64,000 nt of DNA from a virus (lineage: Duplodnaviria > Heunggongvirae > Uroviricota > Caudoviricetes): the IMG/VR virus record IMGVR_UViG_3300035394_000193. The stretch is one strand, 5' to 3'. The notes under the pieces are model-generated. The model did not search any database, was not told where the DNA came from, and saw only the letters and a list, made by a program, of their open reading frames with translations. Shown here piece by piece: positions 6,051-48,927 of the stretch; within the stretch, counting starts at the first letter, position 1, and every line of letters starts with the position of its first letter. Position numbers and translations under genes: made by a program.

Positions 6051-6068
6051 TTTGTTTTGTTTTAATGA

Positions 6069-7627: not shown

Positions 7628-7693
7628 GTCTTTTTTAGGATTTAAAAAGGAGTGCCATTACAGCACCCCTTTTGATTTAATTGGTAAAGAGTC

Positions 7694-8269
7694 CTACAAG
7701 AGGGTTTTGATTGTTTCGGCAATCTGGTTAATGTCACCATTGGCACCATTACCCATTGCTTCAAATTTCCACTCGCCGTTGTGACGGTAGAGTTGACCCA
7801 TAATCATACCGGTTTTTCCGGAATAGTCTTCAGACAGATCAAATTTGGCAAGTTCAGCAGCATTCGCAGGATTGAATACCCTCACAAAGGCATTACGAAC
7901 CTGACCAAAATGCTGTCTCCTGGCTTCGGCTTCATAAATGTTTACAATAACAACAATGCGATGTACGCCTGCGGGGACGGCAGTTAAATCAACATTGATT
8001 ACTTCATCGTCGCCATCACCGGCACCGGTAAGATTATCACCCTGATGGGTAACACCAAATTCTTTCAAATGACGGAAGTAAATAACACCCTTATTGCCTT
8101 CGTAAATTGACTTGTCTTCCTTTAAAAGGATAACAGTACTGTCAAGGTCAACAGCGGGTCCATCGGTTTTTACATCCCATCCACAGCCAATGGCTACTTG
8201 GGTAAGTCCTGGGTTTTCTTTGGTAATGTTTACTCTTTCTCCTTTTTCAAGGTTCAATGGATTGTTCAT
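7694..8269 (-). CDS. terD: TerD domain protein (tellurite resistance / stress protein family)
   Basis: 191 aa; the GDNLTGAGDGDDEVINVDL calcium-binding DGDD-type segment and overall pattern are characteristic of TerD/TerE/TerZ. Confidence 0.85.
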   Translation of the reverse strand: MNNPLNLEKGERVNITKENPGLTQVAIGCGWDVKTDGPAVDLDSTVILLKEDKSIYEGNKGVIYFRHLKEFGVTHQGDNLTGAGDGDDEVINVDLTAVPAGVHRIVVIVNIYEAEARRQHFGQVRNAFVRVFNPANAAELAKFDLSEDYSGKTGMIMGQLYRHNGEWKFEAMGNGANGDINQIAETIKTLL

Positions 8270-8328
8270 TTTGTTCTGTTGTTAATGTTTACTTTTTCTC
8301 CTTTTTCAAGAGCCAATGGATTTTCCAT
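8266..8328 (-). CDS. 20-codon upstream ORF created by tandem duplication of the terD 5' end; its stop overlaps the terD ATG
   Basis: 8287-8328 is a near copy of 8228-8269 (GTTTACT(C/T)TTTCTCCTTTTTCAAG...CAATGGATT...CAT). It reads MENPLALEKGEKVNINNRTK, against the TerD start MNNPLNLEKGERVNI; the uORF TGA (8266-8268) overlaps the TerD ATG (8267-8269) as ATGA. Confidence 0.4.
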   Translation of the reverse strand: MENPLALEKGEKVNINNRTK

Positions 8329-8375
8329 TTGTTTTGTTTTTAATTGTTAATTGATTTTATTGGGTAAGCGTGATT

Positions 8376-8690
8376 CTAAATTAAATTTTCCAATGGATAA
8401 GCATTTCGGATTGACTCCATATCAATTTCATACATGAAATCATCTGTGTTATCATTACATTGCATAACATGTGTTACATCAATATCCTGCGGCAATCGAA
8501 AATTGTGTACAGGTGAGCCTATCATTCGAACTTTTTCAATTATTGCCTCAACAGCTGCTTCAACATGAAGTTTAGCAAATGCTATGGCGACTTGTCCAGT
8601 ATCAGGAGGAATATTCTCTCCATAAGGATCAAATTCTAAACTTCCTCGACACTGAGTAATAAATTCTGATATTGTAGGTACTGTTTCCAT
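8376..8690 (-). CDS. hypothetical protein
   Basis: ORF track gives 8376-8723 from an alternative TTG start that lies inside a terminator hairpin; the first ATG is at 8690 (METVPTISEF...), giving about 104 aa. Confidence 0.45.
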   Translation of the reverse strand: METVPTISEFITQCRGSLEFDPYGENIPPDTGQVAIAFAKLHVEAAVEAIIEKVRMIGSPVHNFRLPQDIDVTHVMQCNDNTDDFMYEIDMESIRNAYPLENLI

Positions 8691-8711
8691 TGTTTCTAAG
8701 ATTAAATTAAA

Positions 8712-8748
8712 AACCTCCGCCAACTATTATTGTCAAGCGGCGGAGGTT
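8712..8748 (-). terminator. rho-independent terminator / attenuator hairpin
   Basis: AACCTCCGCC-N17-GGCGGAGGTT, a 10-bp GC-rich stem followed on the minus strand by TTTTTAATTT; it lies between the 703-aa gene and the ATG at 8690. Confidence 0.55.
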
Positions 8749-8756
8749 TAATTGAA

Positions 8757-8886
8757 GGGGGTTTAACACCCCGCGGTTTGGCGAAGGGATCGCCTTCTGG
8801 TACAAAGTAATAAGGAATTGATTCAGTGGCTTTTTCAGCGACACCCCTTCTATTTTATGTACATAGAAGTAACTCAATCATAGCCT
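8757..8886 (-). promoter_or_regulatory. motif copy plus two further GC hairpins forming a structured leader upstream of gene 8376-8690
   Basis: Motif copy at 8865-8886 (AGGCTATGATTGAGTTACTTCT on the minus strand), then hairpins GGCGAAGGGATCGCC (8780-8794) and GGGGGTTTAACACCCC (8757-8772), and then the terminator hairpin. Confidence 0.35.
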
Positions 8887-8911
8887 TGTTATTATCACTT
8901 TGCCCAATCTT

Positions 8912-11023
8912 TTATATACCCATATATTCCATGGTCTTTACATACGAAGATGCAAAGTCATCGAATAGGAAGTGAGTTTCTGCAGTTTCTTTCGATACAA
9001 CACGACCACGTGCCTCGACATGCCATTGTAGCAAGTCATATACACTGACCTTTGGTAAAGATATGTACGGTTTCAACGCATCGAAAAATTCCGACGATTG
9101 ACCGTAAACAAAACTTGAAAATCCATCATAATCCAGGTCCAAATAAATTGATTCGCGAGCAACTAAATCGTATGCTGCAACCAATACCATATTTCCAGCA
9201 CTTTTTAGGAGCATAGAGTTTTGAATGGTATCTGGTTTCCAGGTTTTGTTCGATTCAGGAAATTGTCGTTCCATTACACCAGCAACACATTCTTTCAAAT
9301 CAGAAAGTTTTCCTCCTTGAAAGTTATGTATTACCATAATGAAATAATTGTACCCGCGTCTTACAGCTTCGTCAACCACAATATCAACATATTCTGCACA
9401 AGCGCCTTGACGATGACGAACATCACCAGAGTAACATCCAAGTCCAGGTACATTTTGATTTCCATTGTATCCAAATGACATACTGCCTTTTGGACCAATT
9501 AAAAATCCGTGTAAATCCAAATCTTGGTCACCATGTTGATCATACCAATGAATAAAAGGTCTAATAACCTTTTTACCTTCACCAAATGGTGTTCTTTGTC
9601 CACGTATTACGGGAACTAAACTATCATTCAAGCTACGCATGTTTGTTGGTAATGGAATCTTTTTCAATTCTTCATCAATCCAACAATCGCCGAGTGCAGG
9701 CAAATCAGCAAACTTACCTTTAATGATATCAAAGATAGTAGACTGTATAGCATCAATCTTTTCAGCTGCAATTGCAGGTAGTGAGGGAAGATTAGTATGT
9801 TTCCTTGCACCTTTAATCATAACCTTGCGATTATTTGAAGGTAGTCTTCTATCTTCAAAATGACTAAATACCTCAAACAATACTTTATTTGAAGCTTTGG
9901 CTCCAATTTTAGCAAGAAGATTGAGAATCAATTGCAAACTACTTTTATTCGCAGTACGAACAAGAAAGTCTAACCTACGTAGAAATTCACCAGGACGTTC
10001 AGCAAGCTTTGTAATCCCAGTGTTAGCGGAAATACTAAAAGCTTTAGTTACTTCGCCGTACCATGATACAACTTTCTCATTTCTAATTTGGTCAAATGCT
10101 TTATAAGCACGAGGAAACAATGCTTTATATTCACCAGGATGTAAGATTTCTCCAATCCTAACCCAACGTTGGTCTTTTAATTTCATTTCACGAACATCCA
10201 AACTAGATTTCTCCAAGAGTTCTAAAATGAATTTACGTTCAGCTCGTTTGAATTTCTTGAACTTGAATTTCTCTCTTTCAGGATTTGCTACAGTAACATA
10301 ACTTCTACGATAGCCACTTTGTTGTCTTACTGTTTTACGAGGTACGGCAGGAAGAGATACATCTCCGCCTGATAGATATACGATGATTCTCAATACATCG
10401 GTCGATGTAAGAGATGGCAATTGAACTGTACCAAGACCACGGCCGGTAGTAATCAATTTGCCAATCATTGTACATAAGTTTTCTTTAAAAGGGATACTTT
10501 CGGGGAAAGTTAGGAATGGATATTCTGCAACAAACCACTCAAGAACTTTTAAATCAGCAGGAGTCAATGATGTACCTGCTTTTGCAAGACTTGTAAAGAT
10601 ATTAGCAAAATCCTGTTCAGTGCCAAGGGTAATAGGTCGGTATTTTACTTGCTCGAATGCTGTACTTTTCGTACGAGTCCATTCGTTAGCAGTGAAAGAT
10701 CCTCCAGACCAATAACCAAGAAGTTGATTAAACCATAATTGTTGTTCCGACATTTCAATTACTTGTGTCGGAAATCCTTTGTATATGGGTTGATAGTCAC
10801 GTTGACCACCGGTCATTTCTTTTAAGTAGTCGAGAACTTCATTATAGAAGTCTTTAATGTTTGCGGCATCAGTATATCCCAATGCTTCTAAAGCATCTGA
10901 ATCTAACATATAGCCAAACCTCATTAGTTCAGCTTGGCACATCATAGCCAAATTGCGGTTATCAATTCCGTTATTCGGAACAACCACAAGACCTTTTTGG
11001 AAAGCGATTACATTTTTATTCAT
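8912..11023 (-). CDS. large hypothetical protein (703 aa), first gene of the Ter-type operon
   Basis: Long uninterrupted ORF with no Walker A motif and no domain I can name from sequence; followed by the motif and hairpin leader. Confidence 0.6.
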   Translation of the reverse strand: MNKNVIAFQKGLVVVPNNGIDNRNLAMMCQAELMRFGYMLDSDALEALGYTDAANIKDFYNEVLDYLKEMTGGQRDYQPIYKGFPTQVIEMSEQQLWFNQLLGYWSGGSFTANEWTRTKSTAFEQVKYRPITLGTEQDFANIFTSLAKAGTSLTPADLKVLEWFVAEYPFLTFPESIPFKENLCTMIGKLITTGRGLGTVQLPSLTSTDVLRIIVYLSGGDVSLPAVPRKTVRQQSGYRRSYVTVANPEREKFKFKKFKRAERKFILELLEKSSLDVREMKLKDQRWVRIGEILHPGEYKALFPRAYKAFDQIRNEKVVSWYGEVTKAFSISANTGITKLAERPGEFLRRLDFLVRTANKSSLQLILNLLAKIGAKASNKVLFEVFSHFEDRRLPSNNRKVMIKGARKHTNLPSLPAIAAEKIDAIQSTIFDIIKGKFADLPALGDCWIDEELKKIPLPTNMRSLNDSLVPVIRGQRTPFGEGKKVIRPFIHWYDQHGDQDLDLHGFLIGPKGSMSFGYNGNQNVPGLGCYSGDVRHRQGACAEYVDIVVDEAVRRGYNYFIMVIHNFQGGKLSDLKECVAGVMERQFPESNKTWKPDTIQNSMLLKSAGNMVLVAAYDLVARESIYLDLDYDGFSSFVYGQSSEFFDALKPYISLPKVSVYDLLQWHVEARGRVVSKETAETHFLFDDFASSYVKTMEYMGI

Positions 11024-11052
11024 GTTTTAATTTATTTAGGGTTTAAAAGTTT

Positions 11053-11409
11053 TTATTGTATTAGAGTTTTAGACTTATAAGGAGTTACTTTAGCTAGATA
11101 AATTTTTTGTTTAGTGTAAAAATCTTTTTGTTTTTGCATTTCAATTGTATGGAATGCACGAATAGCTTCTATTGTAGGAAATTGTTTTTTAATACTTTCC
11201 TCGTCAATTATTTTGACAAGCTTTGGTGTGAATTGTTCTAATCCTGAAGTATAACCATTTTCATACCACCAAAATATGTTATACCAAATAGGAATAAACC
11301 AATAGTAAGCATATTCAATGATGTAAGATTCCTCACAATAATGGGTTAATCGTAATTTAAATTTCTTTTTCATTAGGGATGAGTTTAGATAAAGAAAAAT
11401 GAAAGCCAA
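11053..11409 (-). CDS. hypothetical protein
   Basis: 118 aa ORF, aromatic-rich. Confidence 0.45.
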   Translation of the reverse strand: MAFIFLYLNSSLMKKKFKLRLTHYCEESYIIEYAYYWFIPIWYNIFWWYENGYTSGLEQFTPKLVKIIDEESIKKQFPTIEAIRAFHTIEMQKQKDFYTKQKIYLAKVTPYKSKTLIQ

Positions 11410-11446
11410 ACCATAAGCCTGGCTTTCATGTATTTTGTTATATTGT

Positions 11447-11836
11447 TTACATTGGTTTGTTCCACCAAGAAAGCCATTTAGGCACTCCTTTTGGAAATAC
11501 TTCAGTCATGGTAAGACCTTCTTCACCAGCATATATTAATGTAACAATTATTGCACCAATTGCTGCAATTATATTTAGTATCGGAGTAAGTGATACTAAC
11601 ATTAGCAATGCAAAGGACCATACTTTTAAGCCTATTGGCTTATAGGTATAAGTAGGGTGACGTGTTACTTCAATAAAGCATGGCACAGTAGCCATCCACT
11701 TTAAGAAGAAGAATGTAATAATGGCGATGATTATCCAGAAAATCATGTTATTGTTTTTTAAAAAATTCGTAATTAAAGAAATTGTCGATCTTTGTTCCTT
11801 TACAGCTAGGAAAAACACTGCCAGGTCCATCAGCAA
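11447..11836 (-). CDS. small membrane protein
   Basis: 129 aa, 2-3 predicted TM helices. An internal Met at about 11746 would give ATGA coupling with the upstream gene's stop, so the true start may be there. Confidence 0.45.
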   Translation of the reverse strand: MLMDLAVFFLAVKEQRSTISLITNFLKNNNMIFWIIIAIITFFFLKWMATVPCFIEVTRHPTYTYKPIGLKVWSFALLMLVSLTPILNIIAAIGAIIVTLIYAGEEGLTMTEVFPKGVPKWLSWWNKPM

Positions 11837-12035
11837 TAATACTTACAACAACCCAAATAAATGTAATTATTACTGCAACAGCATTTACTCCAGGAATAAA
11901 AGCTAAAAGAATTACAACAATTATATTTCTTACCTTCAATCCTAATGGGTCTCCTGAATCAGCACAAGGAAAGTAAAGAAACCACAGTCCCCACAACAAT
12001 GTTGCAAGGACTGTGAGTATGTATATACCTAACAT
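11748..12035 (-). CDS. small membrane protein
   Basis: 95 aa, three hydrophobic helices (LTVLATLLWGLWFLYF..., IIVVILLAFIPGV..., VIITFIWVVVSII). Confidence 0.45.
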   Translation of the reverse strand: MLGIYILTVLATLLWGLWFLYFPCADSGDPLGLKVRNIIVVILLAFIPGVNAVAVIITFIWVVVSIIADGPGSVFPSCKGTKIDNFFNYEFFKKQ

Positions 12036-12150
12036 TAGGTTTTAGGTTTTTTGTGATTGCGAAGCCATTCGTTCGTCATCCAATAAATCCATACCACAGC
12101 GGCTACGATTACAAGCGCACCTAGGCCTTCATAAAATGCTCCCATCTTGC

Positions 12151-12930
12151 TTACCTGTTTAAAAGTATGCCGGAAGTTGCTCCGAACACATTGTTAGTAC
12201 CGTATTTTGATACTCCTTTCTGCGCCCAAGTCATTTCAATTTCCAGTTCCTTAAGTTTCAACATAGCCGGTTGTGATAGCACATCCTTAGTCTTCGCATC
12301 CCATTCGGCAGCTTTATAATTATTCTCGGCTTCCTGACCTTTTGACAACGCCAACTTATTCAATTCAGCTTGTTTAGCTGTTGCTTCAGCAGCATCGGCA
12401 ATTCCTTGTGGAATATCAACATCGGTTATCCTAACACGGCTACAAGAAACAAAGAAAGCAGGAAACTCCTTGACTAATATTGCAAGAATTTGTGTTTCAG
12501 CTGAATCCCTTTTGCTTAGGTTTAATTCAGAGGCACTATATTGAGGTATCACTTGTTTAGCTGCAGAGGACAAAGTAGTCATAATCTTAGCATCAAGTTG
12601 TTCTTTACCGATTGAACTATGAATTACATTTGCTTTTAAGCCATCAAGTTTATAGTCAATAGAAACGGCAACCGGAGTCTTCATATTATTGCGATCATTG
12701 AACTCGAACTTTTCAGTAATAGTCTTTTCACGAACGTCGTACTCGACTAGATCGTCCCACAACCAATGGATTCCCATATTCAATCCTTCCGGATGAACGA
12801 CTTGCATGTTTGTTTCACCACCCCACGAGATCTCTACCCCTTTGTGGCCTGATTGTACACTTTCACATCCTGTCAGGAGCATAACTGCTACAACCGACAA
12901 TAAAAATAAGAAATTTCGCATTTTTTTCAT
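12151..12930 (-). CDS. lipoprotein, possibly SPFH/band-7-like
   Basis: 259 aa; signal peptide plus lipobox MKKMRNFLFLLSVVAVMLLTGC. The middle region (VVHPEGLNMGIHWLWDDLVEYDVREKTITEKFEFNDRNNMKTPVAVSIDYKLDG) loosely resembles the SPFH fold; the alanine-rich C-terminus looks coiled-coil. Confidence 0.55.
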   Translation of the reverse strand: MKKMRNFLFLLSVVAVMLLTGCESVQSGHKGVEISWGGETNMQVVHPEGLNMGIHWLWDDLVEYDVREKTITEKFEFNDRNNMKTPVAVSIDYKLDGLKANVIHSSIGKEQLDAKIMTTLSSAAKQVIPQYSASELNLSKRDSAETQILAILVKEFPAFFVSCSRVRITDVDIPQGIADAAEATAKQAELNKLALSKGQEAENNYKAAEWDAKTKDVLSQPAMLKLKELEIEMTWAQKGVSKYGTNNVFGATSGILLNR

Positions 12931-17632: not shown

Positions 17633-17944
17633 TTAAATAGCTTCCTTAATAGTTTTTCCTCGTCTAGCAAGTTACCTTATGCTTCCGATTCTTCAGTAGG
17701 CTATTTTAGGGACATTGTTTACCACCGACACTTTGGTCCAGTAGCCCCTCTGGCTTTAGCCGTTAACCGGCAGATTCAATAAATTTATTACTTTTATTGA
17801 ATCATTTTCCTGGCATCACCTATCTATCGCTAGCATAGAAATGGCGGCTTTCACAGCCTACAGAAAATACGAAAAATCATCACATAATTAGTCTCTACCT
17901 AACCTTGTTAACGTTATTCAAAGAAGAACACTGATGATTTAATG

Positions 17945-18019
17945 GAGTTCCTACGGGACTCGAACCCGTGCCTCGACCCGCTGAATGGGTCCGCTCTACC
18001 AACTGAGACGTAAAGAACT
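17945..18019 (-). tRNA. suppressor tRNA, anticodon UCA (reads UGA)
   Basis: Minus strand AGTTCTT-TA-CGTCTCAGTTGGTAGAGCG-GACCC-ATTCAGC-GGGTC-GAGGC-ACGGG-TTCGAGT-CCCGT-AGGAACT-C. Anticodon stem GACCC/GGGTC closes the 7-nt loop A-T-TCA-G-C, so positions 34-36 are TCA. T-arm and D-loop are canonical; the D-stem has one mismatch; the variable loop is short (not Sec-like). Confidence 0.7.
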
Positions 18020-19632: not shown

Positions 19633-20356
19633 TATTTCTAGGTTTTTATAGGTTTGACCTGATATTATTATATCAACGCACTAGACTTAACAATGTTTAT
19701 ACTCTTCTAGTAGAGTCGAACAAATAAGGCAATCAAAGGATTACTCCCTTGACTGCCTATTCATTCATTTCATAAAGCCTGAGTTTGGTACAACTTTACA
19801 ATAACAGTGTTGCTTCTTTGAAGCGGCTCCATAGTGTCCCACCATTACCGATTGATTTTTTGACAAACCAATAAACTTTCCTCGTAATATACTCTTTGAG
19901 ACGGCTAACCTCATACCCTTTATTACGTCTTCATTGCATCACGATATTATGCAACTAAATCTGCTATGCTGATTAGTATTCGGAAAATCTTTTCACACTT
20001 TTGCCATATAGGATTTAGACAATCAAACATGTGTATTTTTAAAGTCTTAGACTTACAGACTCAATCATAAAAATAAGCCACGCATCCGAAGCTTTGGTGC
20101 TCCGGAAATCCCAATCGCCAATATCATTAATTTGTAACAATGATTCAAACCCTACAGACTTAACCTGCTCAATCCTGGGCTGTGACAGTTATTTTTGAAT
20201 CATTATTACATTTTAAATAACCCAATAAATCCGTATATCCTTCTCAACGGACTCCACCTCATTCGGATAAGCTCTAGCTTAGAGGAATAGAATGGGTTTT
20301 AATAAAAGATTCACCCTCACCACTATTACTAGTGTATATTGGGTGAACCTAGATCA

Positions 20357-25392: not shown

Positions 25393-25605
25393 ATGGAAAA
25401 AATATTAGAGAAATTCGGATATAAAACCGGAGAATTTGACAATGAATGGATTAAAGATATATGGACTATTAGATTTTTTACAGACGGAGTCGAGATTTTT
25501 AATACTCCAAGAATAAATACACCTGGAGAGTATTACAAGACTGCATTTATGGATAAAGAACTGTTAGAAATAGTTTTATTAGAAATAGAAAATAAAATAA
25601 AATAA
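25393..25605 (+). CDS. hypothetical protein
   Basis: 70 aa ORF whose 3' end runs into the (AAAAT)n repeat. Confidence 0.45.
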   Translation: MEKILEKFGYKTGEFDNEWIKDIWTIRFFTDGVEIFNTPRINTPGEYYKTAFMDKELLEIVLLEIENKIK

Positions 25606-25627
25606 AATAAAATAAAATAAAATAAAT
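25589..25627. repeat. (AAAAT)x7 pentanucleotide tandem repeat
   Basis: aaaataaaataaaataaaataaaataaaataaaataaat immediately 5' of the suppressor tRNA. Confidence 0.85.
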
Positions 25628-25631: not shown

Positions 25632-25703
25632 CGGTTCTTAGTGTAATGGCAGCACATTAGTCTTCAAAACTAATAGGTGAGGGTTCGAGTCCTTCAGAGC
25701 CGG
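25632..25703 (+). tRNA. suppressor tRNA, anticodon UCA, tRNA-Trp-like
   Basis: CGGTTCT-TA-GTGT-AATGGCA-GCAC-A-TTAGT-CTTCAAA-ACTAA-TAGGT-GAGGG-TTCGAGT-CCTTC-AGAGCCG-G. The 7-bp acceptor has one G-U pair; the anticodon loop C-T-TCA-A-A puts TCA at 34-36 with A37, i.e. the tRNA-Trp loop CUCCAAA with C35 changed to U; T-loop TTCGAGT. Confidence 0.75.
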
Positions 25704-25707
25704 CAAA

Positions 25708-25935
25708 GTGAAAATGAAAATGAAAATAAAAATGAAAATGAAAATGAAGAAAACAATTAGGGAAATAGAAGGTGAGATATTGGAATTATCTCATGAATTA
25801 AATGGAATACTTTTAAATTATGTAAACCATAACGATTTTATTATGGATGGCAGAGATTATTATAAAATAACTCGCATTTCACATCGTCTTATAACATTAA
25901 TTGATTTAATGGATTATAAAAAAATATTTGAGTAA
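25708..25935 (+). CDS. hypothetical protein (real start probably downstream of the repeat-encoded MKMK tract)
   Basis: 75 aa ORF. Confidence 0.35.
   Translation: MKMKMKIKMKMKMKKTIREIEGEILELSHELNGILLNYVNHNDFIMDGRDYYKITRISHRLITLIDLMDYKKIFE
25710..25745. repeat. (GAAAAT)x6 hexanucleotide tandem repeat
   Basis: gaaaatgaaaatgaaaataaaaatgaaaatgaaaat immediately 3' of the suppressor tRNA; it encodes the MKMKMKIKMKMK N-terminus of ORF 25708. Confidence 0.85.
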
Positions 25936-26114
25936 TGACAGAATTACAACAAAAAATAGTAGACTTTAGAAAAGATGGATTAACTTATAGAGGAATTCAA
26001 TTACAATTAGGCAATCCTTCAAAACAATTTATTAAAGATACTTTAAAAGAATTTGCACCAGATCTAGCGGGTGATGTCGTCAAAAACACAAAAAGACTAG
26101 AGCCAAAATGGTAA
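25935..26114 (+). CDS. small HTH protein (59 aa)
   Basis: MTELQQKIVDFRKDGLTYRGIQLQLGNPSKQFIKDTLKEFAPDLAGDVVKNTKRLEPKW; a helix-turn-helix-like core (LTYRGIQLQLG); followed by a terminator. Confidence 0.4.
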   Translation: MTELQQKIVDFRKDGLTYRGIQLQLGNPSKQFIKDTLKEFAPDLAGDVVKNTKRLEPKW

Positions 26115-26191
26115 CTTATTGTACGCGGCATGTGACAACAAGGATATTATCTTATTTATATCGAGGCACAATCTCACATTAGCCAACTATG

Positions 26192-26225
26192 AAACCCACG
26201 CAGTATTGTAGTGGGTTTTTCCATT
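26192..26225 (+). terminator. rho-independent terminator
   Basis: AAACCCAC-N11-GTGGGTTTTTCCATTT. Confidence 0.65.
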
Positions 26226-26275
26226 TGATTAAAGGTATTAATTATAATACCAAAACATAATGTTAATAATAATTT

Positions 26276-26962
26276 ATGGGAAACAAGAAAGACAGACCAA
26301 GATTACCAGAGCAGCACTCAAGACTAGTTTACAACTTTAGAGCTAAGAGTGCGAAACAACAAGAGTTAATAGATATGATTGAAGAACAAGAGATAGTGGT
26401 TGCAACAGGACCAGCAGGTACAGGTAAAACATATGTAACTTTAGCTACAGCGCTGTCTTTATTAGGACAAGTGTATAGAAAAGTAATATTAGTAAAATCT
26501 GTAACTCCTATTCCTGGTGAAGAGATAGGATTTCTTAAAGGAGGAATGGAACAAAAAATGGAACCGTTCGTAATGTCCTACATGTGGAATATAGATAAAA
26601 TCTGCGGACCAGATTCATCAAAAGATTTGCTTAATAAGAAAATGATAGAGATATTACCGTTAGCTTTTATAAGAGGATTATCTATTGATAATTCAATAGT
26701 AATTATTGACGAAGCACAAAATATAGATAACCATACGTTTAAAACAATAATGACAAGAATCGGAGAAAACTCCAAATATATTTTCTTAGGTGATACTGAG
26801 CAAATAGATAGGAAACATAAAACCGAATCATGTTTAGCAACTGTTTTAGAAATATTTTCAGATTCAGACTTAATTGGAACTATAGAATTTACAGACGAAG
26901 ACTGTGTAAGAAATCCTATTATTCCAAAGATATTAGCAAAATTAAGAAGTAATAACATTTAG
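26276..26962 (+). CDS. phoH: PhoH-like ATPase
   Basis: 228 aa; Walker A VVATGPAGTGKTYVTLA, Walker B IIDEAQN; typical PhoH size and order of motifs; stop TAG. Confidence 0.85.
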   Translation: MGNKKDRPRLPEQHSRLVYNFRAKSAKQQELIDMIEEQEIVVATGPAGTGKTYVTLATALSLLGQVYRKVILVKSVTPIPGEEIGFLKGGMEQKMEPFVMSYMWNIDKICGPDSSKDLLNKKMIEILPLAFIRGLSIDNSIVIIDEAQNIDNHTFKTIMTRIGENSKYIFLGDTEQIDRKHKTESCLATVLEIFSDSDLIGTIEFTDEDCVRNPIIPKILAKLRSNNI

Positions 26963-27364
26963 TTATAAAGAATTGGTATTTTACTTCCCAATTCAAATGT
27001 ATAATAATTTAGCAAATATAATTAATAATGAATTTAAAAATTAAGATATTTTATAAAAATTGTGTTTTATTCCAAAATTTATAAATACCTTTGTAAAAAT
27101 TTAAAACAAACCTAAAATTAAAAAGTTTAAATCAGTATGGCAGATGTATTAAAATTAATAACTTATATTATTGTTAATCATGGATATTGAGCGGCATTTG
27201 CCTTTGTATCAGTTAGTTCGATCCCACTTCTGGCTGGGGCTTACTTATTATCTTCTAAGAATGTATTAAGTAAAATTATTGATAGAAAGTTTTCTGAAAA
27301 AGAAGAAGAAGAAAAAGCTAATCATAAACATGGTAACAGACTTAGAAAACAATTTACTGAAGAA

Positions 27365-27865
27365 GTGCAGGAAATACTTAGTAATTTAGCTGAAGAAACA
27401 AAAGCTAATAGAGCAATTATTTTTGAGTTTTCTAACGGAACTACAAATCTCGTAGGACTTCCATTTTTGTTTATGACTGCAACTAATGAAGTTGCAACTC
27501 CAGGATTACCTTTAATGAGTCAAAGACATGAACGTTTAAATACTGCAATGGTGGCTCCATTTTTAACAAGGTTAGAAAGAGATGGATTCATTTTTATTGA
27601 CCGCACTGGGCCAATACCCCCAGATTGCAGAGTATTGGAACAAGTAATGGAACGAGCAGATATTGAAAGTGTTTTATTCTATTCAATTCAGGGTGTTGAC
27701 GAAGCCATTGGATTTTTAGCTATTGTAACAACCCGATCATCCTATAATATTTTAGAATATCCAGCAATTTTACCATTAGTAAGTAGGGCAGCACAAAGAA
27801 TTGGTTCAATGATCAATTATGATGAGATAGATGAAAGAGAAAAAGAAAAGAAAAAATTTAAATGA
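27365..27865 (+). CDS. hypothetical protein (GTG start in the ORF track; real start uncertain)
   Basis: 166 aa ORF; an in-frame TGA 69 nt upstream (27296) could extend it if read through. Confidence 0.45.
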   Translation: MQEILSNLAEETKANRAIIFEFSNGTTNLVGLPFLFMTATNEVATPGLPLMSQRHERLNTAMVAPFLTRLERDGFIFIDRTGPIPPDCRVLEQVMERADIESVLFYSIQGVDEAIGFLAIVTTRSSYNILEYPAILPLVSRAAQRIGSMINYDEIDEREKEKKKFK

Positions 27866-28788
27866 TGGTGACAAATGTAATTGATTATGATCAACTCCTA
27901 GTAGATAAAGAAAATGAAGTAGTTAAATATAATGATGAACTCCATAAATACTGGGTTAAAGAATCTAATCAATCCTGCATTTCGGTTACAACTCTTATTC
28001 ATCAGTTTACTGTATTTGATGAAGATTTTTGGTCTTCCTATAAAGCATTAGAAAGTTTAATAGGTGAAGATAATTTTAAAAGTGTAAAACCCGATTTGTT
28101 AAATTTTAAACAATTCAACCAAACTTACCTTGATAGAACAGGCGTTGCTTTAGACGCCTTTTCTACAAGGAAGCAGGAAATCCTTGAGGACTGACGAGAA
28201 AAGCGAGAAGCTTCTTGTATTAGAGGAACTGCAATTCATAGACAGCATGAGTTAGAACATCTTGCTGGTAAAACAAAAGAATTACAACATTTAGGTTTAG
28301 GTGGTTCATTTTCTACCAAGACTTCAAATAAAATAGAACCAGGACGTGGAATATATCCTGAATTACTTTTATCTAGAATATCACCTGATGGAAAACTTAG
28401 ATTGGCAGGACAAGCTGATTTAGTTATCATAGATGGATTTGATGTATACATTCTAGACTATAAAACTAATAAAAAGATTGATATGAAAGCATATTTCGAT
28501 AGAAAAACTAAAAAACATTCTATGATGAAGTATCCTCTTAACAATATACAAGATACTAATTTTTGGCATTATAGCATACAGTTATCTACTTACGCATGGA
28601 TGATTCAAAAGATTGATCCTAGATTCAATATTAAAGCGCTTATTTTATTACATTATGATCATGATGGAAATAATGCAACTTATGAATGTGAGTATTTAAA
28701 AACTGAAGTAGAAAGAATGCTAACTTTTCATAAACAACAAATTGAACACAATGAATTTAAGCAATCAAGAGAAAAAATTATTTTTTAG
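27862..28788 (+). CDS. PD-(D/E)XK family nuclease; first gene containing an in-frame TGA (28192-28194)
   Basis: ORF-track fragments 27862-28194 and 28402-28788 are in the same frame with no TAA/TAG between them. The merged protein has the motifs GTAIHRQHE ... LVIIDGFDVYILDYKTNKK (D ... D-x-x-x-D-Y-K) typical of Cas4/RecB-like PD-(D/E)XK nucleases. Confidence 0.6.
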
Positions 28789-28891
28789 AGTAGGAATTGC
28801 TATTACTAGTTTGATAGTAGTGGCAGCATTTTATTGAATGGCTATTAAATGAGTAAATGATTATAAACATAGTAATATTGTAGAACACCAA

Positions 28892-29464
28892 ATGATAGCT
28901 GCTAAGTATGAAGCAAAAGTTGATTCTATTAATATAGTAAATACAATTTTATTATCACAAGTAGATAGTCTTGAGAAAGAAATAAAAGAAGTTAAAGGCA
29001 CAAAAGAAATTGTTTATATTGAAACAACTAAAAAAGATAATATAATTAAGGATGCTAGTGCAGCAGACCACGCAAAAGCAATTGACTCTTTAACAGAACA
29101 AATGCCAACATGGGCAATTATTAAAGATACTCAAAATGACACACTTATTAAATATCAATTTACTAAAGAAGGAGTAATTAAATTAAGACTTAAAGTAAAT
29201 AGTCTATATAAATATAAAGACCTTTATAAAATTGATGAAGTAATTATACATAAACAACAGTTAGAAATTGATATTTTTAAAGAAGTATCCGAAAACTGTA
29301 AAGATATTGTAAAACTAAATGAAGATGCTATAACGATATATAAACAATCCAATGAGAAATTAATACAACAATTAAACAAATCTCAAAAACGAGCAGGTCG
29401 TTGGCCTTATTGGTTAGGAGGAGGAATATTAGGAGGAGTTATATTATGTCTATCAGTCAAATAA
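28892..29464 (+). CDS. coiled-coil protein with a C-terminal TM anchor
   Basis: 190 aa; C-terminus RWPYWLGGGILGGVILCLSVK; might start at ATG 28838 if the TGA at 28850 is sense. Confidence 0.5.
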   Translation: MIAAKYEAKVDSINIVNTILLSQVDSLEKEIKEVKGTKEIVYIETTKKDNIIKDASAADHAKAIDSLTEQMPTWAIIKDTQNDTLIKYQFTKEGVIKLRLKVNSLYKYKDLYKIDEVIIHKQQLEIDIFKEVSENCKDIVKLNEDAITIYKQSNEKLIQQLNKSQKRAGRWPYWLGGGILGGVILCLSVK

Positions 29465-29718
29465 TTAATGGCACATACAAAAATCTTTTAAATAAAGACG
29501 AAGAATTGTATAAAGAAAGAATAGCCATTTGTCATAAATGTAAATTGTTAAAAAAAGATAAAATATTTGGAGAAGTATGTAATTCAACATTATATCTAAA
29601 TCCAGCAACAAATGAAATCTCAAAAACAGCTAAACCAGGTTTTAGACATGGATGTGGCTGCGTGTTAGGATCAAAAACAAGAGTAGAAGATACAGAATGT
29701 CCACTAGGAAAGTGGTAA
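29446..29718 (+). CDS. Cys-rich zinc-ribbon protein
   Basis: ATG at 29446 (MSISQIING...); CHKC ... C ... GCGC ... C pattern. Confidence 0.45.
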   Translation: MSISQIINGTYKNLLNKDEELYKERIAICHKCKLLKKDKIFGEVCNSTLYLNPATNEISKTAKPGFRHGCGCVLGSKTRVEDTECPLGKW

Positions 29719-29745
29719 ATATTAATTAAAAAATGATAATGAATT

Positions 29746-30285
29746 ATGAGTTTAAAAGAAGAACAAACAGGGAAATTTTATATGGCTAATAGAATAGGAG
29801 CCAACGAGGATATTTTTCTACCAGAGAATCAAATACTAAGAGATGCTCAAAAATTAAGAGAGCAGAAAGAACTTGAAGAAGCTAATAAATTATTTTTATT
29901 AGCACAAGAGAAGAAACAAAAAGAACTTGATGAAAAACTAGAACGCTTGGAACTAATTCCAATGGGAGGAAAGATAATTATTTTACCTTATGCTTTAAAT
30001 CCTTACAGAAAAGTAATGGAGGGAAAAATTATAGTAGAATATACAGGAGATTTTAATAATCCTGATTCAGGTGAAAAAGATAAATTGGATGTCTTTGTTG
30101 GATGTGCACAAGTTATAGAAGTTGGACCTGAAGTAAAATATATAAAAAATGGCGACGATGTATTCTATGATACACGTACAGTATATCCTCTTCCATTTAT
30201 GCAGCAAGGATATAAAGTTACAGTAGAGCCATCTATAATAGCAGTAATTAATGAAGGATTAAAAGCACGTTTTAAAATGGAATAA
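29746..30285 (+). CDS. possible GroES/Gp31-like co-chaperonin
   Basis: 179 aa; C-terminal half GGKIIILPYALNPYRKVMEGKIIVEYTGD ... VFVGCAQVIEVGPEVKYIKNGDDVFYD resembles the GroES beta-barrel pattern (GGIILP ... G.V.AVG.G ... V..GD.V.Y); weak. Confidence 0.35.
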   Translation: MSLKEEQTGKFYMANRIGANEDIFLPENQILRDAQKLREQKELEEANKLFLLAQEKKQKELDEKLERLELIPMGGKIIILPYALNPYRKVMEGKIIVEYTGDFNNPDSGEKDKLDVFVGCAQVIEVGPEVKYIKNGDDVFYDTRTVYPLPFMQQGYKVTVEPSIIAVINEGLKARFKME

Positions 30286-30286
30286 T

Positions 30287-30511
30287 ATGGAAAATGAATT
30301 AAAACAATTTTTTCTTCCTGGTGATGTAGTAACCATTAGACAAGATATACCAAATAAACCTATAATGATTGTAGTTAAAAAAGTAACTAAATCAATTAAG
30401 ACAGAATCATTACGAGGAGATTTTTTTCAAGGAATTTTATGTCGATGATTTACAACACAAGGACAACTACAGGAAGCTTTATATAATACTAAAGATTTAC
30501 AGAAATTATAA
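30287..30511 (+). CDS. hypothetical protein, recoded (1 in-frame TGA at 30446)
   Basis: ATG 30287 through TAA 30509-30511; 74 aa if TGA is sense (…GILCRWFTTQGQLQEALYNTKDLQKL). Confidence 0.4.
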
Positions 30512-30513
30512 TT

Positions 30514-31095
30514 ATGATACAAGAATTAAATAAACTTAAAAATCCTTATGGATATGATAAATTAAAATCATTCCAAATAGGTGGAAGTATTACAGAAGAT
30601 AAAAAGAAAGAATTACTTCCTTTCTTTGTCTTCTTAGTATCGCAAGAAATAAATCCTGAAAAGTATGGTAAATTTAAAGATACCATACCAGGAGAAGAAT
30701 GAAGTTCTACAATTTCAGTAGATGACGACACTGTTAATAAAGCTGTTGAACAATATAAACAATTATCTGAAGAAAATTTAGCTCAATTAGAAGCTTATCA
30801 AACTCAATACATTGCAGATCATAAAACTAATTCTTTAGATAGTGCGCAATTTGCAGCTAAAGGTGCTAAACTTAAGAAATTAAATTTAGTTAAGAAAGCA
30901 GCACCAATTACAAAGAAAGAAACAGTTGCAGAGTCTGCATCAAATCCAGTTATCACTAAAGCTAAAGGTGGAACTACTAAAAAGAAAAAGAAATGTTCTT
31001 GTGGATGCGATATGATTCTTACTAAAGCCGCAGGAGGAAAAGTTATGGAAACTTGTTCTTGTAAATGTGGCGGTAAATTAAAGAAAAAGAAATAA
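30514..31095 (+). CDS. Lys-rich protein with a C-terminal Cys cluster, recoded (TGA at 30700)
   Basis: ORF 30514-30702 continues in frame to TAA 31093-31095; C-terminus CSCGCDMILTKAAGGKVMETCSCKCGGKLKKKK. Confidence 0.5.
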
Positions 31096-31675: not shown

Positions 31676-33874
31676 ATGGCTAATACTTTTACTTGAGATG
31701 TTCCTTTGGGACAACCTATTGAGTATTTTGATATTGAACAATCTTTTGAATTAACTGGGTTTAGACCAATAAATGATACTCAAGGATTAGATTTTAATCC
31801 AAATTGATTTAGAGAAGACGCTCTTAATAAATTAAAAACAGGCCGATATAGTCCATCGTCTATTCCTATAGGTTCAAAGACTCATGTAGATTGATGAAGA
31901 GAAAGAATTGATAGATGTAATAATGGATATACTGTAAATGGATATAGAATAACAGGAGATAATTATTTCTTTCTTAATTTCTATAATCTTAAATCTTCGG
32001 ATTTTGAGACTATAAATCAAACTTATGGATTTCCAGAATTTTTAGTTTTTCAATATGAATATTTTCATTATTTGGAAATGTGTGAAAAATTAAAGAAAGA
32101 TACATCTGTATTAAAATCTCGTGGTATTGGATTTTCTGAAATGGCTTCTTCATTTATAGTAAGACCATATACAACTATTCCAAACTTTAGATCTGTTGTT
32201 TCTGCTTTTTCAAAAAACCATTTAACTCCAACTCTTAGTAAGATTTGGTTACAAATGGATTGATTAAATGAAAACACAGAAGGAGCTTTGCGAAGAGTTC
32301 GCATGAATATAAATACGGCTACACATAAAAGAGCATCTAAAAAAGATAAAGATGGAAGTGAATCAGGACATCGTTCAGAAGTTGAAGGACTTGTTTGCGA
32401 TGAAGTTGATAAACTTAGGGGAGATAGAACTCAAATTTTAATCTACGAAGAAGCAGGTGCGGATACAGTTTTATTAAAGAAATGAGTTAAAGGCGAAGCT
32501 TTAATTTCTGTACTTGGAGGTAAAAGAGTTGGACGACGTATTGCTTTTGGAACTGGAGGTTCCTCTAAAGCAAGTTCAATGCAAGGATTAAAGAAAATGA
32601 CCTTAAATCCACAAGCATATAATATTTTACCTGTTAGACATAATTTTACTCAAGATGGAAAATATATTATCTCTGGATTATTTATTCCTGCTTATAGAAT
32701 TGTTTATGAGCTTATTGATAGTCGAGGATGATGTAATGTTGGAAAAGCTAAAGAATATTATTTAAAAGAACGATCAAAATTAATTGATGAACCAAAAGAT
32801 TTATTAGAATATAAATCTGAATATTGTTTTACAATTGAAGAGGCTTTAATTCAACATTCAGACAATTTATTTCCGGTCGAGGAAATAGCAGAACAATTAG
32901 CACATATTGATATTTATAAAGATATTCCATTACCTAAAGCTGGATTTTTAACATGAGCAATTGATGAAAATACTAAAATGAGGAATGGAAAAGTAAAATG
33001 ACGTGAAGATCCTGATGGAAATATATTAATAGCAGAACATCCTATAATGTCTGAAGAAGGCACGGATTATAACAATTTATATGTTGGAGGAATTGACTCA
33101 ATTGATATTGGAGCAACAGACTCTGCACAATCTAAAAAAGCAAATGAAACTGTATCTTCAGAATTTTGTATTGTTATTAAGAAAAGAATTTTAGGATTAC
33201 AAGATCCAAAATATGTTGCAATGTATAAAGACAGACCTAGAGACCCTAGAGAAGCTTATGAAAATGCAGCAAAACTACTTACTTATTATTATGCGAAAGC
33301 TGTCTTAGAATCTACAAGAACTACTATTACTACTTATTTTAGAGATCATAAATATTTATCTTTATTAATGAAACGTCCAAGAGCAACTATGCCTGATATT
33401 TCAAAAGGTAATTCAAATATGTATGGTACTCCTGCTACTGTTAAAGTAATTGAACATTATAGAGAATTAATCTATGATTTTTGTTTAGATTATTGTTATA
33501 CAATATCGTTTAGAGAAATATTAGATCAATTACTAAACTACTCTGATGAAGACAAAAAGAAATTTGATATTGTTGCAGCTATGGGAATGTGTGAATTAGC
33601 AGATGAGGAATTATCAGTTAAAAAACCAGAAGCAAGAGAACCACAAGGTAAAAAATTCCAAGATATTGGATGATGAACTGATAATAAGGGATACAAACAT
33701 TATGGAGTAATTCCGCAAACAAGAGAAGAGAAAAATGATATGACTAGAAAAAATAGGGATGAAACATGAATTAATAATGAACCTAAATCTGAATTTTGGG
33801 AAAATACACCTCATTATAGAAAATTTTCACAAGAAGAATGAGCAACTTATAACGCATTAAAAGAACCTAAATAA
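31676..33874 (+). CDS. terL: terminase large subunit-like protein, recoded (about 10 in-frame TGA)
   Basis: 732 aa after merging ORF fragments 32072, 32288, 33047 (all in the same frame mod 3). LVCDEVDKL Walker-B-like segment; C-terminal RNase-H-like nuclease pattern YVGGIDSIDIGATDSAQ; size and position typical of TerL. Confidence 0.65.
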
Positions 33875-43412: not shown

Positions 43413-45434
43413 ATGGCAGAATATATAGAATTTTATAAACAATTTCAAAGACAGTTTGCTGATAGTCTAGATAATTCTTCATCTTTTGAAACATATGACG
43501 CGATGAATGCTTATCTTTCTAATAATGCTAGATATTCAGGTCAAATTGCTACTTGTAAAGATAGAGAAGGTATTATTTATATTCTTAATGAAACAAAAGA
43601 TGAATGGTTAGCTAATGGAGTATCTGATTATTGGACTATTCAATCTGGAGAAGACAGTAGTAATATAACTAAATTTAAAAAGTTACAAATTGATACTACT
43701 AATATTTTAGCTATAGTTAGTGAAGATGAAGTTACAGGTGTAACCACTTTGTATTTAGAAGCAGGTTATCACAATAGACAACATGAAATGACTTCTGCTC
43801 TTGACCATAGTCCAGGCACTAATACTAACCCTTATTATTCTATAGCAACTAAAATAAATACTTCGGGTACAGTATTAGGTCTTGAATGGAAATTACAAGA
43901 AGTAGAAACATCTGCCCAAATTATGCAACGTAGGGTAATTAATTATCCTACAAGATTTACTGCTGGTCAAAAGTTTGTTTATGATGGTACATTATATATA
44001 CTTAATAGTGATAAAAGTAAATGGATACCTTCTGATTTTCAAAAACTTATAATCGGTGATTTCAAAGAAGCATCTGAAACATCAACAGAAATAGTAACTG
44101 TCGCACACGCTGATTCTTATGCTTTTTATGCTGCACATGGTACTTGTCAAATAGGAGATAAGTTTTATATAGGAGAAAGACAATATCCCACATCTCTTAC
44201 AGTATTTAATGACCCTAAAGATTTAACTAATTATACAAAAGTTGTTATTCCATTTACAGAATTTAGTCCAACTGGTATAGGACTGGATAACTTGATTGAT
44301 AGTATGTGTTATGATGATGTGAATAATATTATATATGCAACTATGTATTATAATGCATCTTATACAGTAACTAATGGTAGTGTACAAGCATTAAAAATAA
44401 TATCTATAAACCCTGATGATATTTCAGATTATAATGTAGCTTATAGTGACCCTTTTACTATGGTTGGGGTTAGTCCTACAATAAGTACTGATGGAGAACA
44501 TTATTATATTGGTACTTATTTGGATGCAAATTGTAAAATTATTAAAATAAATATAGCAAGTAGTACAGAAGTTAGTAGAGTTACTATACCTAATATTGGA
44601 TTTATTCATGCTTCTATGCTTCAAAAATATTCTGATAGAAATGAATTATATGTAACTGCTCGTAAAAAAGTAGGAACTGCATATCCTAGTGATGATACAA
44701 AATTTATTAAATTAAATTGTGCAGATTTATCTTATTCTGTTTTAGATATACCTGAACTAAAAACACCATCTGATGATTTTGAATTTATTTATACAAATGA
44801 TTTAGGAGGTAAAGCGTATTTAATAAGTGAAGGTAGCTTGCTATTGTCTGTTGTGAATACAGAAACTATGACATATATTAATTATCCTTCTGTAACTGGT
44901 TTCTTTTGTAAACGTGTTGGTGATTATATATATGCAGGTAAAACAAGTATTGCTCGTCATAATATAGCAGACCCTAGCATAGTAACTATTAAAACTACTC
45001 CTAATAATGAACGTGCAAATGAATTATTTGTATCATCCGAAGGTGAAACTTATTATACTTGCTGGAGAAATTCGTATGGTGGAGAAGATACACAATTTAG
45101 AAGTTTAGTGCATTTTAGATTTTGTGAAAATACTGGTGGGTTCACAGTTAGAAACAATGAAGCGATGTTTTTCAAAGGAGAAGATGGAATAACAATTGAT
45201 TATAATACTGCAAAAACAGTTACTATTAGGGGAAGTGGTGCTCCTAAACTACAAAAGTTTACAGCAATAACAGATCAAGCAACATATACAATTACTAGCT
45301 TTATACCACATGAAGATTGTTTAGTATATGTAAATAATGTATTACAAGATGTAACTGTTAGTGGTCAAGATATAACATTAGGGTTTGGACCTGATGGTGG
45401 TGAAATAATTAAAGTACTTAACGTAACAACTTAA
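43413..45434 (+). CDS. tail fibre-like protein X3
   Basis: 673 aa with no TGA; its N-terminus (MAEYIEFYKQFQRQF ... RYSGQIATC) is paralogous to the X2 N-terminus (MDNPPYIEFYKQFKRNF ... RYAGQIVTC). Confidence 0.5.
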   Translation: MAEYIEFYKQFQRQFADSLDNSSSFETYDAMNAYLSNNARYSGQIATCKDREGIIYILNETKDEWLANGVSDYWTIQSGEDSSNITKFKKLQIDTTNILAIVSEDEVTGVTTLYLEAGYHNRQHEMTSALDHSPGTNTNPYYSIATKINTSGTVLGLEWKLQEVETSAQIMQRRVINYPTRFTAGQKFVYDGTLYILNSDKSKWIPSDFQKLIIGDFKEASETSTEIVTVAHADSYAFYAAHGTCQIGDKFYIGERQYPTSLTVFNDPKDLTNYTKVVIPFTEFSPTGIGLDNLIDSMCYDDVNNIIYATMYYNASYTVTNGSVQALKIISINPDDISDYNVAYSDPFTMVGVSPTISTDGEHYYIGTYLDANCKIIKINIASSTEVSRVTIPNIGFIHASMLQKYSDRNELYVTARKKVGTAYPSDDTKFIKLNCADLSYSVLDIPELKTPSDDFEFIYTNDLGGKAYLISEGSLLLSVVNTETMTYINYPSVTGFFCKRVGDYIYAGKTSIARHNIADPSIVTIKTTPNNERANELFVSSEGETYYTCWRNSYGGEDTQFRSLVHFRFCENTGGFTVRNNEAMFFKGEDGITIDYNTAKTVTIRGSGAPKLQKFTAITDQATYTITSFIPHEDCLVYVNNVLQDVTVSGQDITLGFGPDGGEIIKVLNVTT

Positions 45435-45438
45435 CAAA

Positions 45439-48210: not shown

Positions 48211-48211
48211 T

Positions 48212-48436
48212 ATGAAAGTAAAAGAAATATATATGTATGTGTTGGGAGCACTTATAACTCTCGCGTATTTTACTACATTAGCAATTTTAATAATTCAAAA
48301 AGGAGATAGTAATACGATTTCCTTAATGGTTGGAGCATTAATAGCAGCTTTTTCTGCTGTTTATGGTTATTTCTATGGAAGTAGTAAAGGTAGTGCAGAT
48401 AAAAATGAAATTATTAAATCACAAATAGAAAAATAA
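48212..48436 (+). CDS. holin-like small membrane protein
   Basis: 74 aa from ATG 48212; two TM helices (IYMYVLGALITLAYFTTLAILII and LMVGALIAAFSAVYGYFYG) with a charged C-terminus; lies next to a cell-wall-enzyme-like gene. Confidence 0.5.
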   Translation: MKVKEIYMYVLGALITLAYFTTLAILIIQKGDSNTISLMVGALIAAFSAVYGYFYGSSKGSADKNEIIKSQIEK

Positions 48437-48819: not shown

Positions 48820-48830
48820 TTAATATATAA

Positions 48831-48927
48831 GTAGAAAATATTTCTAATAGAAAGATTAGAATATTTTAAATTATTAAACTTAATAAAAAGAGTAATGTGT
48901 AATTTTTATATCAGAAATATTTTCTAC
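48831..48927. repeat. perfect 15-bp inverted repeat separated by 67 bp
   Basis: GTAGAAAATATTTCT (48831-48845) and AGAAATATTTTCTAC (48913-48927), in the intergenic region before the capsid module. Confidence 0.7.

Follow-up and report, generated by a model that had tools for sequence, protein, structure and literature searches.

The window analysed here, a stretch of phage DNA of 64,000 nucleotides with 31% G+C, is best explained as part of a crAss-like phage genome of about 169 kb that uses two genetic codes, and we hold this explanation, taken as a whole, with high confidence. Comparison with related loci shows that TGA would be read as tryptophan from position 27137 rightward, namely, in the genes of a GAF-membrane protein, a nuclease, and the terminase, portal, capsid and tail proteins. 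TGA is never a sense codon in the leftward block or in the operon that extends from the RepO-like gene to the PhoH gene. The single in-frame TGA of the nuclease gene, which a sequence-only reading of this DNA had taken for the first sense TGA and for a translational switch, is predicted to be an ordinary tryptophan codon, neither the first sense TGA nor a conserved switch. The features concerned are collected in Table 1.

Table 1. Positions of the features discussed in the text, in window coordinates
Feature	Position	Strand	Remarks
Second, atypical tRNA(UCA), leftward block	17944..18019	-	ARAGORN; Rfam tRNA 37.9 bits
Putative suppressor tRNA(UCA), Trp-like	25632..25704	+	ARAGORN; Rfam tRNA 63.3 bits; 73-nt cloverleaf, A37, G73
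PhoH-like ATPase gene	26276..26962	+	PHROG_170, E 1e-68; 0 TGA, 1 TGG, TAG stop
Promoter-like motif TACCTTTG	27086..27093	+	Matches TAnnTTTG; 51 nt upstream of ATG 27137
Membrane-anchored GAF-fold protein gene	27137..27880	+	247 aa; three predicted sense TGAs; overlaps nuclease start
Predicted true first sense TGA on the + strand	27188..27190	+	Codon 18 of the GAF gene, Trp in membrane helix
Cas4/RecB-type PD-(D/E)XK exonuclease gene (predicted)	27862..28788	+	308 codons; one TGA, four TGG, TAG end
Predicted sense TGA, Trp111 of the nuclease	28192..28194	+	Middle of helix 96-133; W invariant in 56 aligned homologs
Membrane protein gene, directly after the nuclease gene	28751..29464	+	Two sense TGAs (28835, 28850)
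Large terminase gene	31676..33874	+	PHROG_6681, E 6e-63; 13 TGA, 2 TGG

Distribution and decoding of TGA

The leftward genes (1-22157), among which are those of TerD, TerC, vWA, ComF-like PRTase and adenylosuccinate synthetase, are followed by rightward genes that run from the gene of a replication-initiator-like protein (RepO-like, 22607) to that of PhoH, the final gene in the standard code, and then to the GAF and nuclease genes, with the genes of the large terminase, portal (36965) and major capsid protein (49970) further to the right. In the 45 main-strand ORFs of the standard-code region (1 to ~27000) there is no sense TGA versus 87 TGG, while the 32 genes from the nuclease rightward contain 71 TGA versus 59 TGG (Fisher P 2.7e-21). 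When the corrected upstream GAF gene is added (27137 onward), the recoded set comprises 74 TGA and 60 TGG (Fisher P 1e-21). At least one sense TGA is present in 23 of the 32 genes, as well as in the GAF gene, and the conserved late genes are among the carriers (four in the portal gene, one in the major capsid protein gene). The presence of 13 TGAs in the terminase gene shows that the recoded block is the late packaging and structural module. The earlier statement that the upstream replication and regulatory genes are free of TGA holds for those from the RepO-like gene to PhoH and for the leftward block (0 TGA, 87 TGG); the GAF gene has three.

The frequency of tryptophan is 1.26% in the standard-code set, and in the recoded set it is 1.09% with TGA counted as tryptophan and 0.50% from TGG only, so that the two blocks match only if TGA is counted as tryptophan. 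Among the 716 codons of 41 related loci that align opposite the TGAs of the window, 297 are TGA and 199 TGG, followed by phenylalanine (72), tyrosine (48) and glycine (5) codons; the TGAs of the terminase gene, likewise, have TGG, TGA, F or Y as their counterparts in relatives. This pattern of TGG, TGA and aromatic residues argues for tryptophan as the meaning of TGA.

That TGA has another meaning in these genes, namely glycine as in code 25 or selenocysteine, or that the host itself uses code 4 and there is consequently no switch of code at all, we regard as extremely unlikely. Phages of code 25 do exist (Borges et al. 2021), ARAGORN labels the tRNAs of the window as 'SeC', and some relatives encode tRNA(UCA) with a long variable arm, one of them scoring above the Rfam threshold for tRNA-Sec. 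However, the ARAGORN label derives from the anticodon alone, the tRNA at 25632 is a standard cloverleaf of 73 nt with G73 and not of the selenocysteine type, and glycine accounts for just five of the 716 aligned codons, most of which are TGG or aromatic. A host of code 4, in turn, fails to explain why none of 87 tryptophan codons over ~27 kb is TGA, or the probable TGA stops in this region. The selenocysteine and glycine readings were therefore rejected on the basis of the TGA-Trp alignments and the tRNA type.

These probable stops concern four leftward genes, each of which has a TAA or TAG 1-21 codons beyond its TGA. Initially, five TGA-ended genes had been counted in the standard-code region, and the number was cut to four once the alignment of a tryptophan-rich tail, described below, removed TGA 27863. 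The host would use the standard code, to judge by these four probable stops, by the blocks that lack sense TGA and by the type of promoter; the relatives of the terminase that come from Bacteroidota phages also point in this direction. Among the window proteins scanned, no phage RF1 or TrpRS was seen. The bases that follow the sense TGAs have the same distribution as those after TGG and after codons overall, with no bias.

The most plausible decoder of these TGAs is encoded by the phage itself. Its gene, that of a Trp-like tRNA(UCA) on the + strand, is located within the standard-code operon and precedes the recoded unit by 1.4 kb and the nuclease gene by 2.2 kb. Of the 44 related loci scanned, 28 have a + strand tRNA(UCA) gene ahead of the nuclease gene, at a distance of 1.5-6.4 kb; several of the 44 do not extend far enough to include this region. 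We infer that this tRNA, charged with tryptophan, decodes the nuclease TGA. The second tRNA(UCA) of the window departs from the usual form in having G37, an extended D region and a C after the acceptor stem; its presence, together with the long-variable-arm tRNA(UCA) genes of relatives, leaves some doubt as to which tRNA does the decoding. The tRNA gene at 25632-25704 is flanked by (AAAAT)n and (AAAATG)n repeats.

The GAF gene and the junction between the codes

The sequence-only reading had set the recoding boundary at 27862, the start of the nuclease gene, and had begun the upstream gene at 27365 or later, as any ORF list made with code 11 does. Results of our analysis move this boundary to about 27100. 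Upstream of 27365, the reading frame of the GAF gene continues as MADVLKLITYIIVNHGY-TGA-AAFAF..., which corresponds to an N-terminal membrane helix conserved family-wide, and the N-terminus of the protein, MADVLKLITYII.NHGYW, is conserved in homologs. Full-length homologs are of 240-251 aa and have tryptophan at residue 18, whereas a second class of homologs, of 206-220 aa, consists of code-11 calls truncated just past codon 18. At the other end of the gene, the homologs share a C-terminal tail K-W-K-W-x-W-Q-K, the counterpart of which in the window is KFK-TGA-TGG-TGA-CAA-ATG-TAA (27863-27880); the assignment of TGA 27863 as the stop codon of the GAF gene is ruled out by this tail. The conservation of both the N-terminal helix and the tryptophan-rich tail indicates that the GAF gene spans 27137-27880 and contains three sense TGAs (27188-27190, 27863-27865 and 27869-27871). 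The nuclease TGA is thus the fourth sense TGA, and not the first, on the + strand, and the nuclease gene is the second gene of the recoded block.

Codon 18 of the GAF gene is TGA also in relatives L068, L034, L070, L069, L002, L003 and L006, and TGG in L008; in most full-length homologs residue 18 is tryptophan. The AlphaFold2 model of the GAF protein (pLDDT 79) combines a GAF fold with two helices, one of them long and the other a membrane helix, and Foldseek matches it to GAF domains (E 3e-8, TM-score of at most 0.82).

In front of the GAF gene lies a promoter-like motif that fits TAnnTTTG, the -7 promoter consensus of the Bacteroidetes sigma-ABfr (PMC7366714). In 15 of 16 genomes the motif is located 49-53 nt upstream of the ATG of the orthologous GAF gene (binomial P 2e-21), and it is kept also in distant genomes whose flanking DNA is otherwise unalignable. 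This conservation suggests that the motif at 27086 is a functional promoter of host (Bacteroidetes) type and that the recoded block may form one transcription unit, in which case the code boundary would coincide with a transcription-unit boundary. In distant relatives, PhoH is followed by a G+C-rich hairpin with a T-run behind it, and a terminator scan of the window detected nothing at the code boundary. A scan for sigma-70 promoters was uninformative (60 sites vs. 61 expected), and an extended promoter consensus was dropped as a promoter class, as it occurs once in the window. Motifs of the TAnnTTTG type precede the standard-code operon too; the kind of promoter is therefore not enough to tell which of the two units comes first in time.

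The nuclease and its tryptophan 111

The nuclease gene is predicted to encode one intact exonuclease of Cas4/RecB type that is read through the TGA. With tryptophan at position 111, the protein matches Pfam PF12705 (PDDEXK_1) at residues 101-264 (25.1 bits vs. a cut-off of 22) and the PHROG_298 exonuclease family at residues 16-301 (E 6e-18). These matches and those found by Foldseek all run across codon 111, in agreement with the relation to Cas4/RecB/lambda-exonuclease-like nucleases to which the sequence-only reading had pointed. A protein search (E<=0.001) yielded 2429 homologs. Among the best 120 of these, 119 are undivided proteins with a length of 300-323 aa, and the exception has 243 aa and extends over 79% of the query. 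This excludes the possibility that the N-terminal and C-terminal parts of the nuclease are separate genes. The start codon of the gene may be the second ATG, at 27865.

The AlphaFold2 model of the nuclease (pLDDT 91) is a single compact domain, in which codon 111 falls in the middle of a helix of 38 residues. Among the structures matched by Foldseek are Cas4 SSO0001, MGME1, Exo5, RecE, the nuclease domains of AddAB/RecB and lambda exonuclease; the probability is 1.0 for 4ic1 (Cas4), MGME1, Exo5 and RecE. The TM-scores of the matches, 0.26-0.39 on the query, are modest, and no PDB sequence was matched at E<=1 by a profile made from the nuclease alignment. The fold and the residues D185 and D198-x-K200 are common to the nuclease and the Cas4/RecB family (PF12705, PHROG_298), while about 90 N-terminal residues of the nuclease have no counterpart in the matched structures of Cas4/RecB type. 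Only two cysteines, C118 and C275, are invariant, with C38 nearly so, and the four-cysteine Fe-S pattern of Cas4 is absent and its C-terminal cysteine triad is missing. The protein has therefore been assigned as a Cas4/RecB-type PD-(D/E)XK exonuclease and not as Cas4.

Several observations of the sequence-only reading on this gene are borne out. The TGA at codon 111 is the only one in the ORF, and the catalytic D...D-Y-K motif (GQADLV...LDYK), with D185, D198 and K200 invariant in 56 aligned homologs, lies wholly beyond it. Without decoding of UGA, the product would be an N-terminal fragment of 110 aa devoid of catalytic residues. As had been stated, the 69 codons past the TGA contain neither a stop nor an ATG; there is no in-frame ATG, GTG or TTG among them, the first being TTG 28402, and the first in-frame ATG comes 96 codons past the TGA. 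The whole stop-free run amounts to 197 codons, which at the base composition of the window has a chance of 6e-8.

A single stop in an otherwise conserved gene, in which the closest relatives have TGG, could also point to a pseudogene or to an assembly or sequencing error. The same TGA is, however, present in an independent assembly (L001, from SRR10915313), which is 99.99% identical to the window across 13 kb, and the identical nuclease protein is recorded on six contigs, which argues that the TGA is real. The same block contains about 74 sense TGAs, those of the terminase, portal and capsid genes included, and the frame past the TGA is intact, with all invariant residues present. We attach a practically negligible probability to this explanation, and both of its forms were rejected in view of the independent assembly and the intact ORF.

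The tryptophan at position 111 is conserved as a residue, but its codon is not. Among the relatives, it is encoded by TGG in 37 of 41 and by TGA in the remaining four. In the five closest relatives (L034 and L067-L070; 86-90% amino acid identity), the codon is TGG and the nuclease gene contains no TGA at all. These close relatives were gathered by exact-protein look-ups, while a metagenome scan gave one close relative. More generally, the nuclease genes of most relatives have no TGA, and those of a few heavily recoded lineages have five to eight. When the nuclease is compared with those of the close relatives, dN/dS amounts to 0.04-0.14 both before and after codon 111; as dS is near saturation, this value is no direct measure of purifying selection since the TGA arose. 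The simplest reading of these data is that the nuclease TGA represents a young, lineage-specific substitution of TGA for TGG. Such a change would be tolerated because translation of the nuclease gene presumably takes place in the presence of the suppressor; the A+T-rich mutational background may have favoured it.

The proposal that the nuclease is poised as a switch or sensor of suppressor availability, its TGA having been selected to withhold the catalytic domain until the suppressor tRNA builds up, has to be weighed against this distribution. The position of the TGA ahead of all catalytic residues, the lack of a restart codon in the 69 codons past it, the location of the gene next to the code boundary with one of its five tryptophan codons recoded, and the tRNA(UCA) gene 2.2 kb upstream are all in line with such a role. 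Yet the codon is TGG in most relatives, including all the closest ones, and the following base shows no bias. The three sense TGAs of the preceding, overlapping GAF gene already impose the same dependence on the suppressor. Moreover, the presence of five to eight TGAs in the nuclease genes of some relatives and of none in most looks like drift and not like a fixed device. We consider a dedicated switch at this codon very unlikely, and favour the ordinary tryptophan codon.

Timing of the recoded genes and comparison with known phages

The location of the tRNA(UCA) gene in the preceding, standard-code operon suggests that the tRNA would be made before, or together with, the recoded messages. Synthesis of the nuclease would then depend on the suppressor exactly as that of every downstream gene product does. 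That the nuclease should depend on the phage tRNA(UCA) is a logical consequence and corresponds to the model published for the whole late block. A gating role, if there is any, would belong to the block as a whole, and if a single codon were to be considered for it, this would be codon 18 of the GAF gene, with its conserved TGA, and not the nuclease codon.

A gene-by-genome matrix indicates that the order of genes (PhoH, GAF gene, nuclease, membrane protein ... terminase) is kept among relatives, while the position of the first sense TGA shifts along it: it is found in PhoH in several lineages, in the GAF gene in many, and in the nuclease or later genes in other relatives. It is tentatively possible, although we regard it as unlikely, that the TGA at 27188 acts as a gate at the level of the operon. 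If so, ribosomes would stop 54 nt into the message when the suppressor tRNA is lacking, the untranslated transcript could be shortened by Rho (classical nonsense polarity), and the whole tightly packed run of downstream genes would be silenced until tRNA(UCA) accumulates.

Block-wise use of code 4 or code 15 has been described in crAss-like and other gut phages (Yutin 2021, PMC7886860; Borges 2021; Pfennig 2022, the Mgcod study, bioRxiv 10.1101/2022.06.29.495998; and the study of the Zeta crAss-like phage 'Lera', PMC12386605). Also known from these four papers are replication genes in the standard code next to structural and lysis genes that are recoded, the placement of suppressor tRNAs 5' on the recoded strand, and rapid changes of code between close relatives, as well as the idea that late translation is gated by recoding. 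A model in which recoding forms a translational gate for late and lytic genes is that of Borges et al. 2021 (bioRxiv 10.1101/2021.08.26.457843); according to Yutin 2021 and Pfennig 2022, the idea was first proposed by Ivanova et al. 2014.

The phage studied here resembles the code-4 crAss-like phages in its standard-code replication block, in its recoded terminase, portal and capsid genes with TGA opposite tryptophan, and in a tRNA(UCA) of its own, encoded 5' of the recoded genes on their strand. Relatives have genomes of 163-213 kb, a length that contigs with the nuclease or its homologs reach. The terminase of the phage is related to those of crAss-like phages, and the putative assignment to this group is by terminase similarity: in the phage collection, tblastn gave as best matches two fecal 'Bacteriophage sp.' records without annotation (41-45% identity), followed by crAss-like phages with 26-31% identity, from Bacteroides, Flavobacterium and Azobacteroides. 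Apart from this low identity, the differences concern the nucleotide level, at which the phage collection contained no megablast match to 26000-31000, and the position of the code switch, which is located 4.7 kb past the strand switch, at an internal promoter.

With the gate model of Borges et al., the locus shares early genes and a suppressor tRNA in the standard code, structural genes that would need the suppressor, an extent of recoding that differs among close relatives, and the depletion of TGA in the non-recoded part. While that work describes a genome-wide pattern with stress on lysis genes, in the present case the boundary has been placed exactly, at a conserved promoter-like site, and the first sense TGA is assigned to codon 18 of a GAF-membrane protein gene. 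The locus is thus a further case of a published phenomenon (Yutin 2021; Borges 2021; Pfennig 2022). No new mechanism is revealed, the nuclease is not special, and the arrangement is ordinary for this class of phages.

What is added here is the placement of the switch at the level of bases at a conserved promoter-like site, the corrected first gene of the recoded block, and a recoding front that moves among relatives. The correction is also of value for annotation, as gene callers that use code 11 truncate the GAF gene and split that of the nuclease. The locus provides a clean case of a phage that changes its genetic code in mid-genome, with the switch mapped to one junction bounded by a probable promoter. 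The shifting first sense TGA and the TGA/TGG pair of the nuclease constitute a natural allelic series for testing the timing model, and the published hypothesis that the recoding of stop codons times the synthesis of late proteins could be put to a natural test at this locus.

Recoding front and TGA-free island

The first recoded gene of the window adjoins the PD-(D/E)XK nuclease gene throughout the family, as part of a conserved neighbourhood, and its product matched no Pfam or PHROG family. PhoH is the last standard-code gene in the window. Among the related phages, the PhoH orthologs of L004, L012-L016, L027, L028, L035, L038, and L068 contain sense TGA (one codon each, except for two in L038), and TGG is absent from the aligned PhoH region in these TGA-bearing relatives. 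In the public gene call of L068, PhoH is split in two because of its sense TGA. The occurrence of such codons in PhoH of relatives thus indicates that the recoding front crosses the promoter in some lineages.

Within the recoded block, the products of the TGA-free island include proteins of 673 aa and 923 aa, neither of which gave a PHROG match; their size and position suggest that they are tail fibres. The G+C content of the island is not distinctive.

Features of the window and their coordinates
Feature	Position	Strand	Remarks
Tellurite-resistance-type cluster	609-12930	-	leftward block
tRNA-shaped element	3886-3960	-	acceptor, D and T arms good
Second, atypical tRNA(UCA)	17944-18019	-	37.9 bits; within the TGA-free leftward block
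Match to Pistol self-cleaving ribozyme (RF02679)	19653-19716	-	38.8 bits vs. gathering score of 34.5
Tandem array (AAAAT)x7.6	25589-25626		flanks the putative suppressor tRNA gene
Tandem array (AAAATG)x7.3	25705-25748		flanks the same gene on its other side
First recoded gene	27137-27880	+	product with a membrane helix, a long helix and a GAF fold
TGA-free island	43413-49951	+	five genes in succession; 0 TGA, 17 TGG

Suppressor tRNA gene and its counterparts in relatives

The gene of the putative suppressor, a 73-nt Trp-like tRNA(UCA), lies between two tandem arrays, of which (AAAATG)x7.3 supplies the opening codons of the next ORF (MKMKMK...). In nine relatives (L004, L007, L009, L010, L021, L022, L027, L037, and L070) the same place is occupied by a tRNA(UCA) of 93-100 nt with a long variable arm and, as judged by eye, an apparently 6-bp D stem. 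That of L007 barely exceeds the Rfam tRNA-Sec threshold (47.2 vs. 47), and the TGAs of the relatives with this long tRNA are still at Trp positions. The long type is present in L070 despite the closeness of this phage to the window phage (86% identity of the nuclease).

tRNA-like elements and probable TGA stops of the leftward block

The anticodon arm of the tRNA-shaped element ends in CGAAAG (a GAAA tetraloop), and since this cap replaces the 7-nt loop, the element has no anticodon; its score is below the Rfam tRNA threshold. The second tRNA(UCA) has G37 and two additional bases preceding the D stem. Its acceptor stem is possibly of 8 bp, by means of a G-1:C73 pair, a pairing that also occurs in tRNA-His. 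The Pistol ribozyme match is intergenic and also belongs to the leftward block.

The tellurite-resistance-type cluster encodes adenylosuccinate synthetase, TerC, a vWA-TerF-like protein, a ComF-like PRTase, and TerD, and an SPFH protein is encoded in the same region; no gene of the cluster, nor the SPFH gene, contains a sense TGA. Probably, TGA serves as the stop codon of four leftward genes, at 3260, 6935, 15027, and 16260 (all on the - strand). Two of these ends (6935 and 15027) overlap the start of the next gene as ATGA, and 1-21 codons beyond each of the four lies TAA or TAG as a back-up stop. If the suppressor is active, the four leftward proteins ending at TGA would gain a slight extension.
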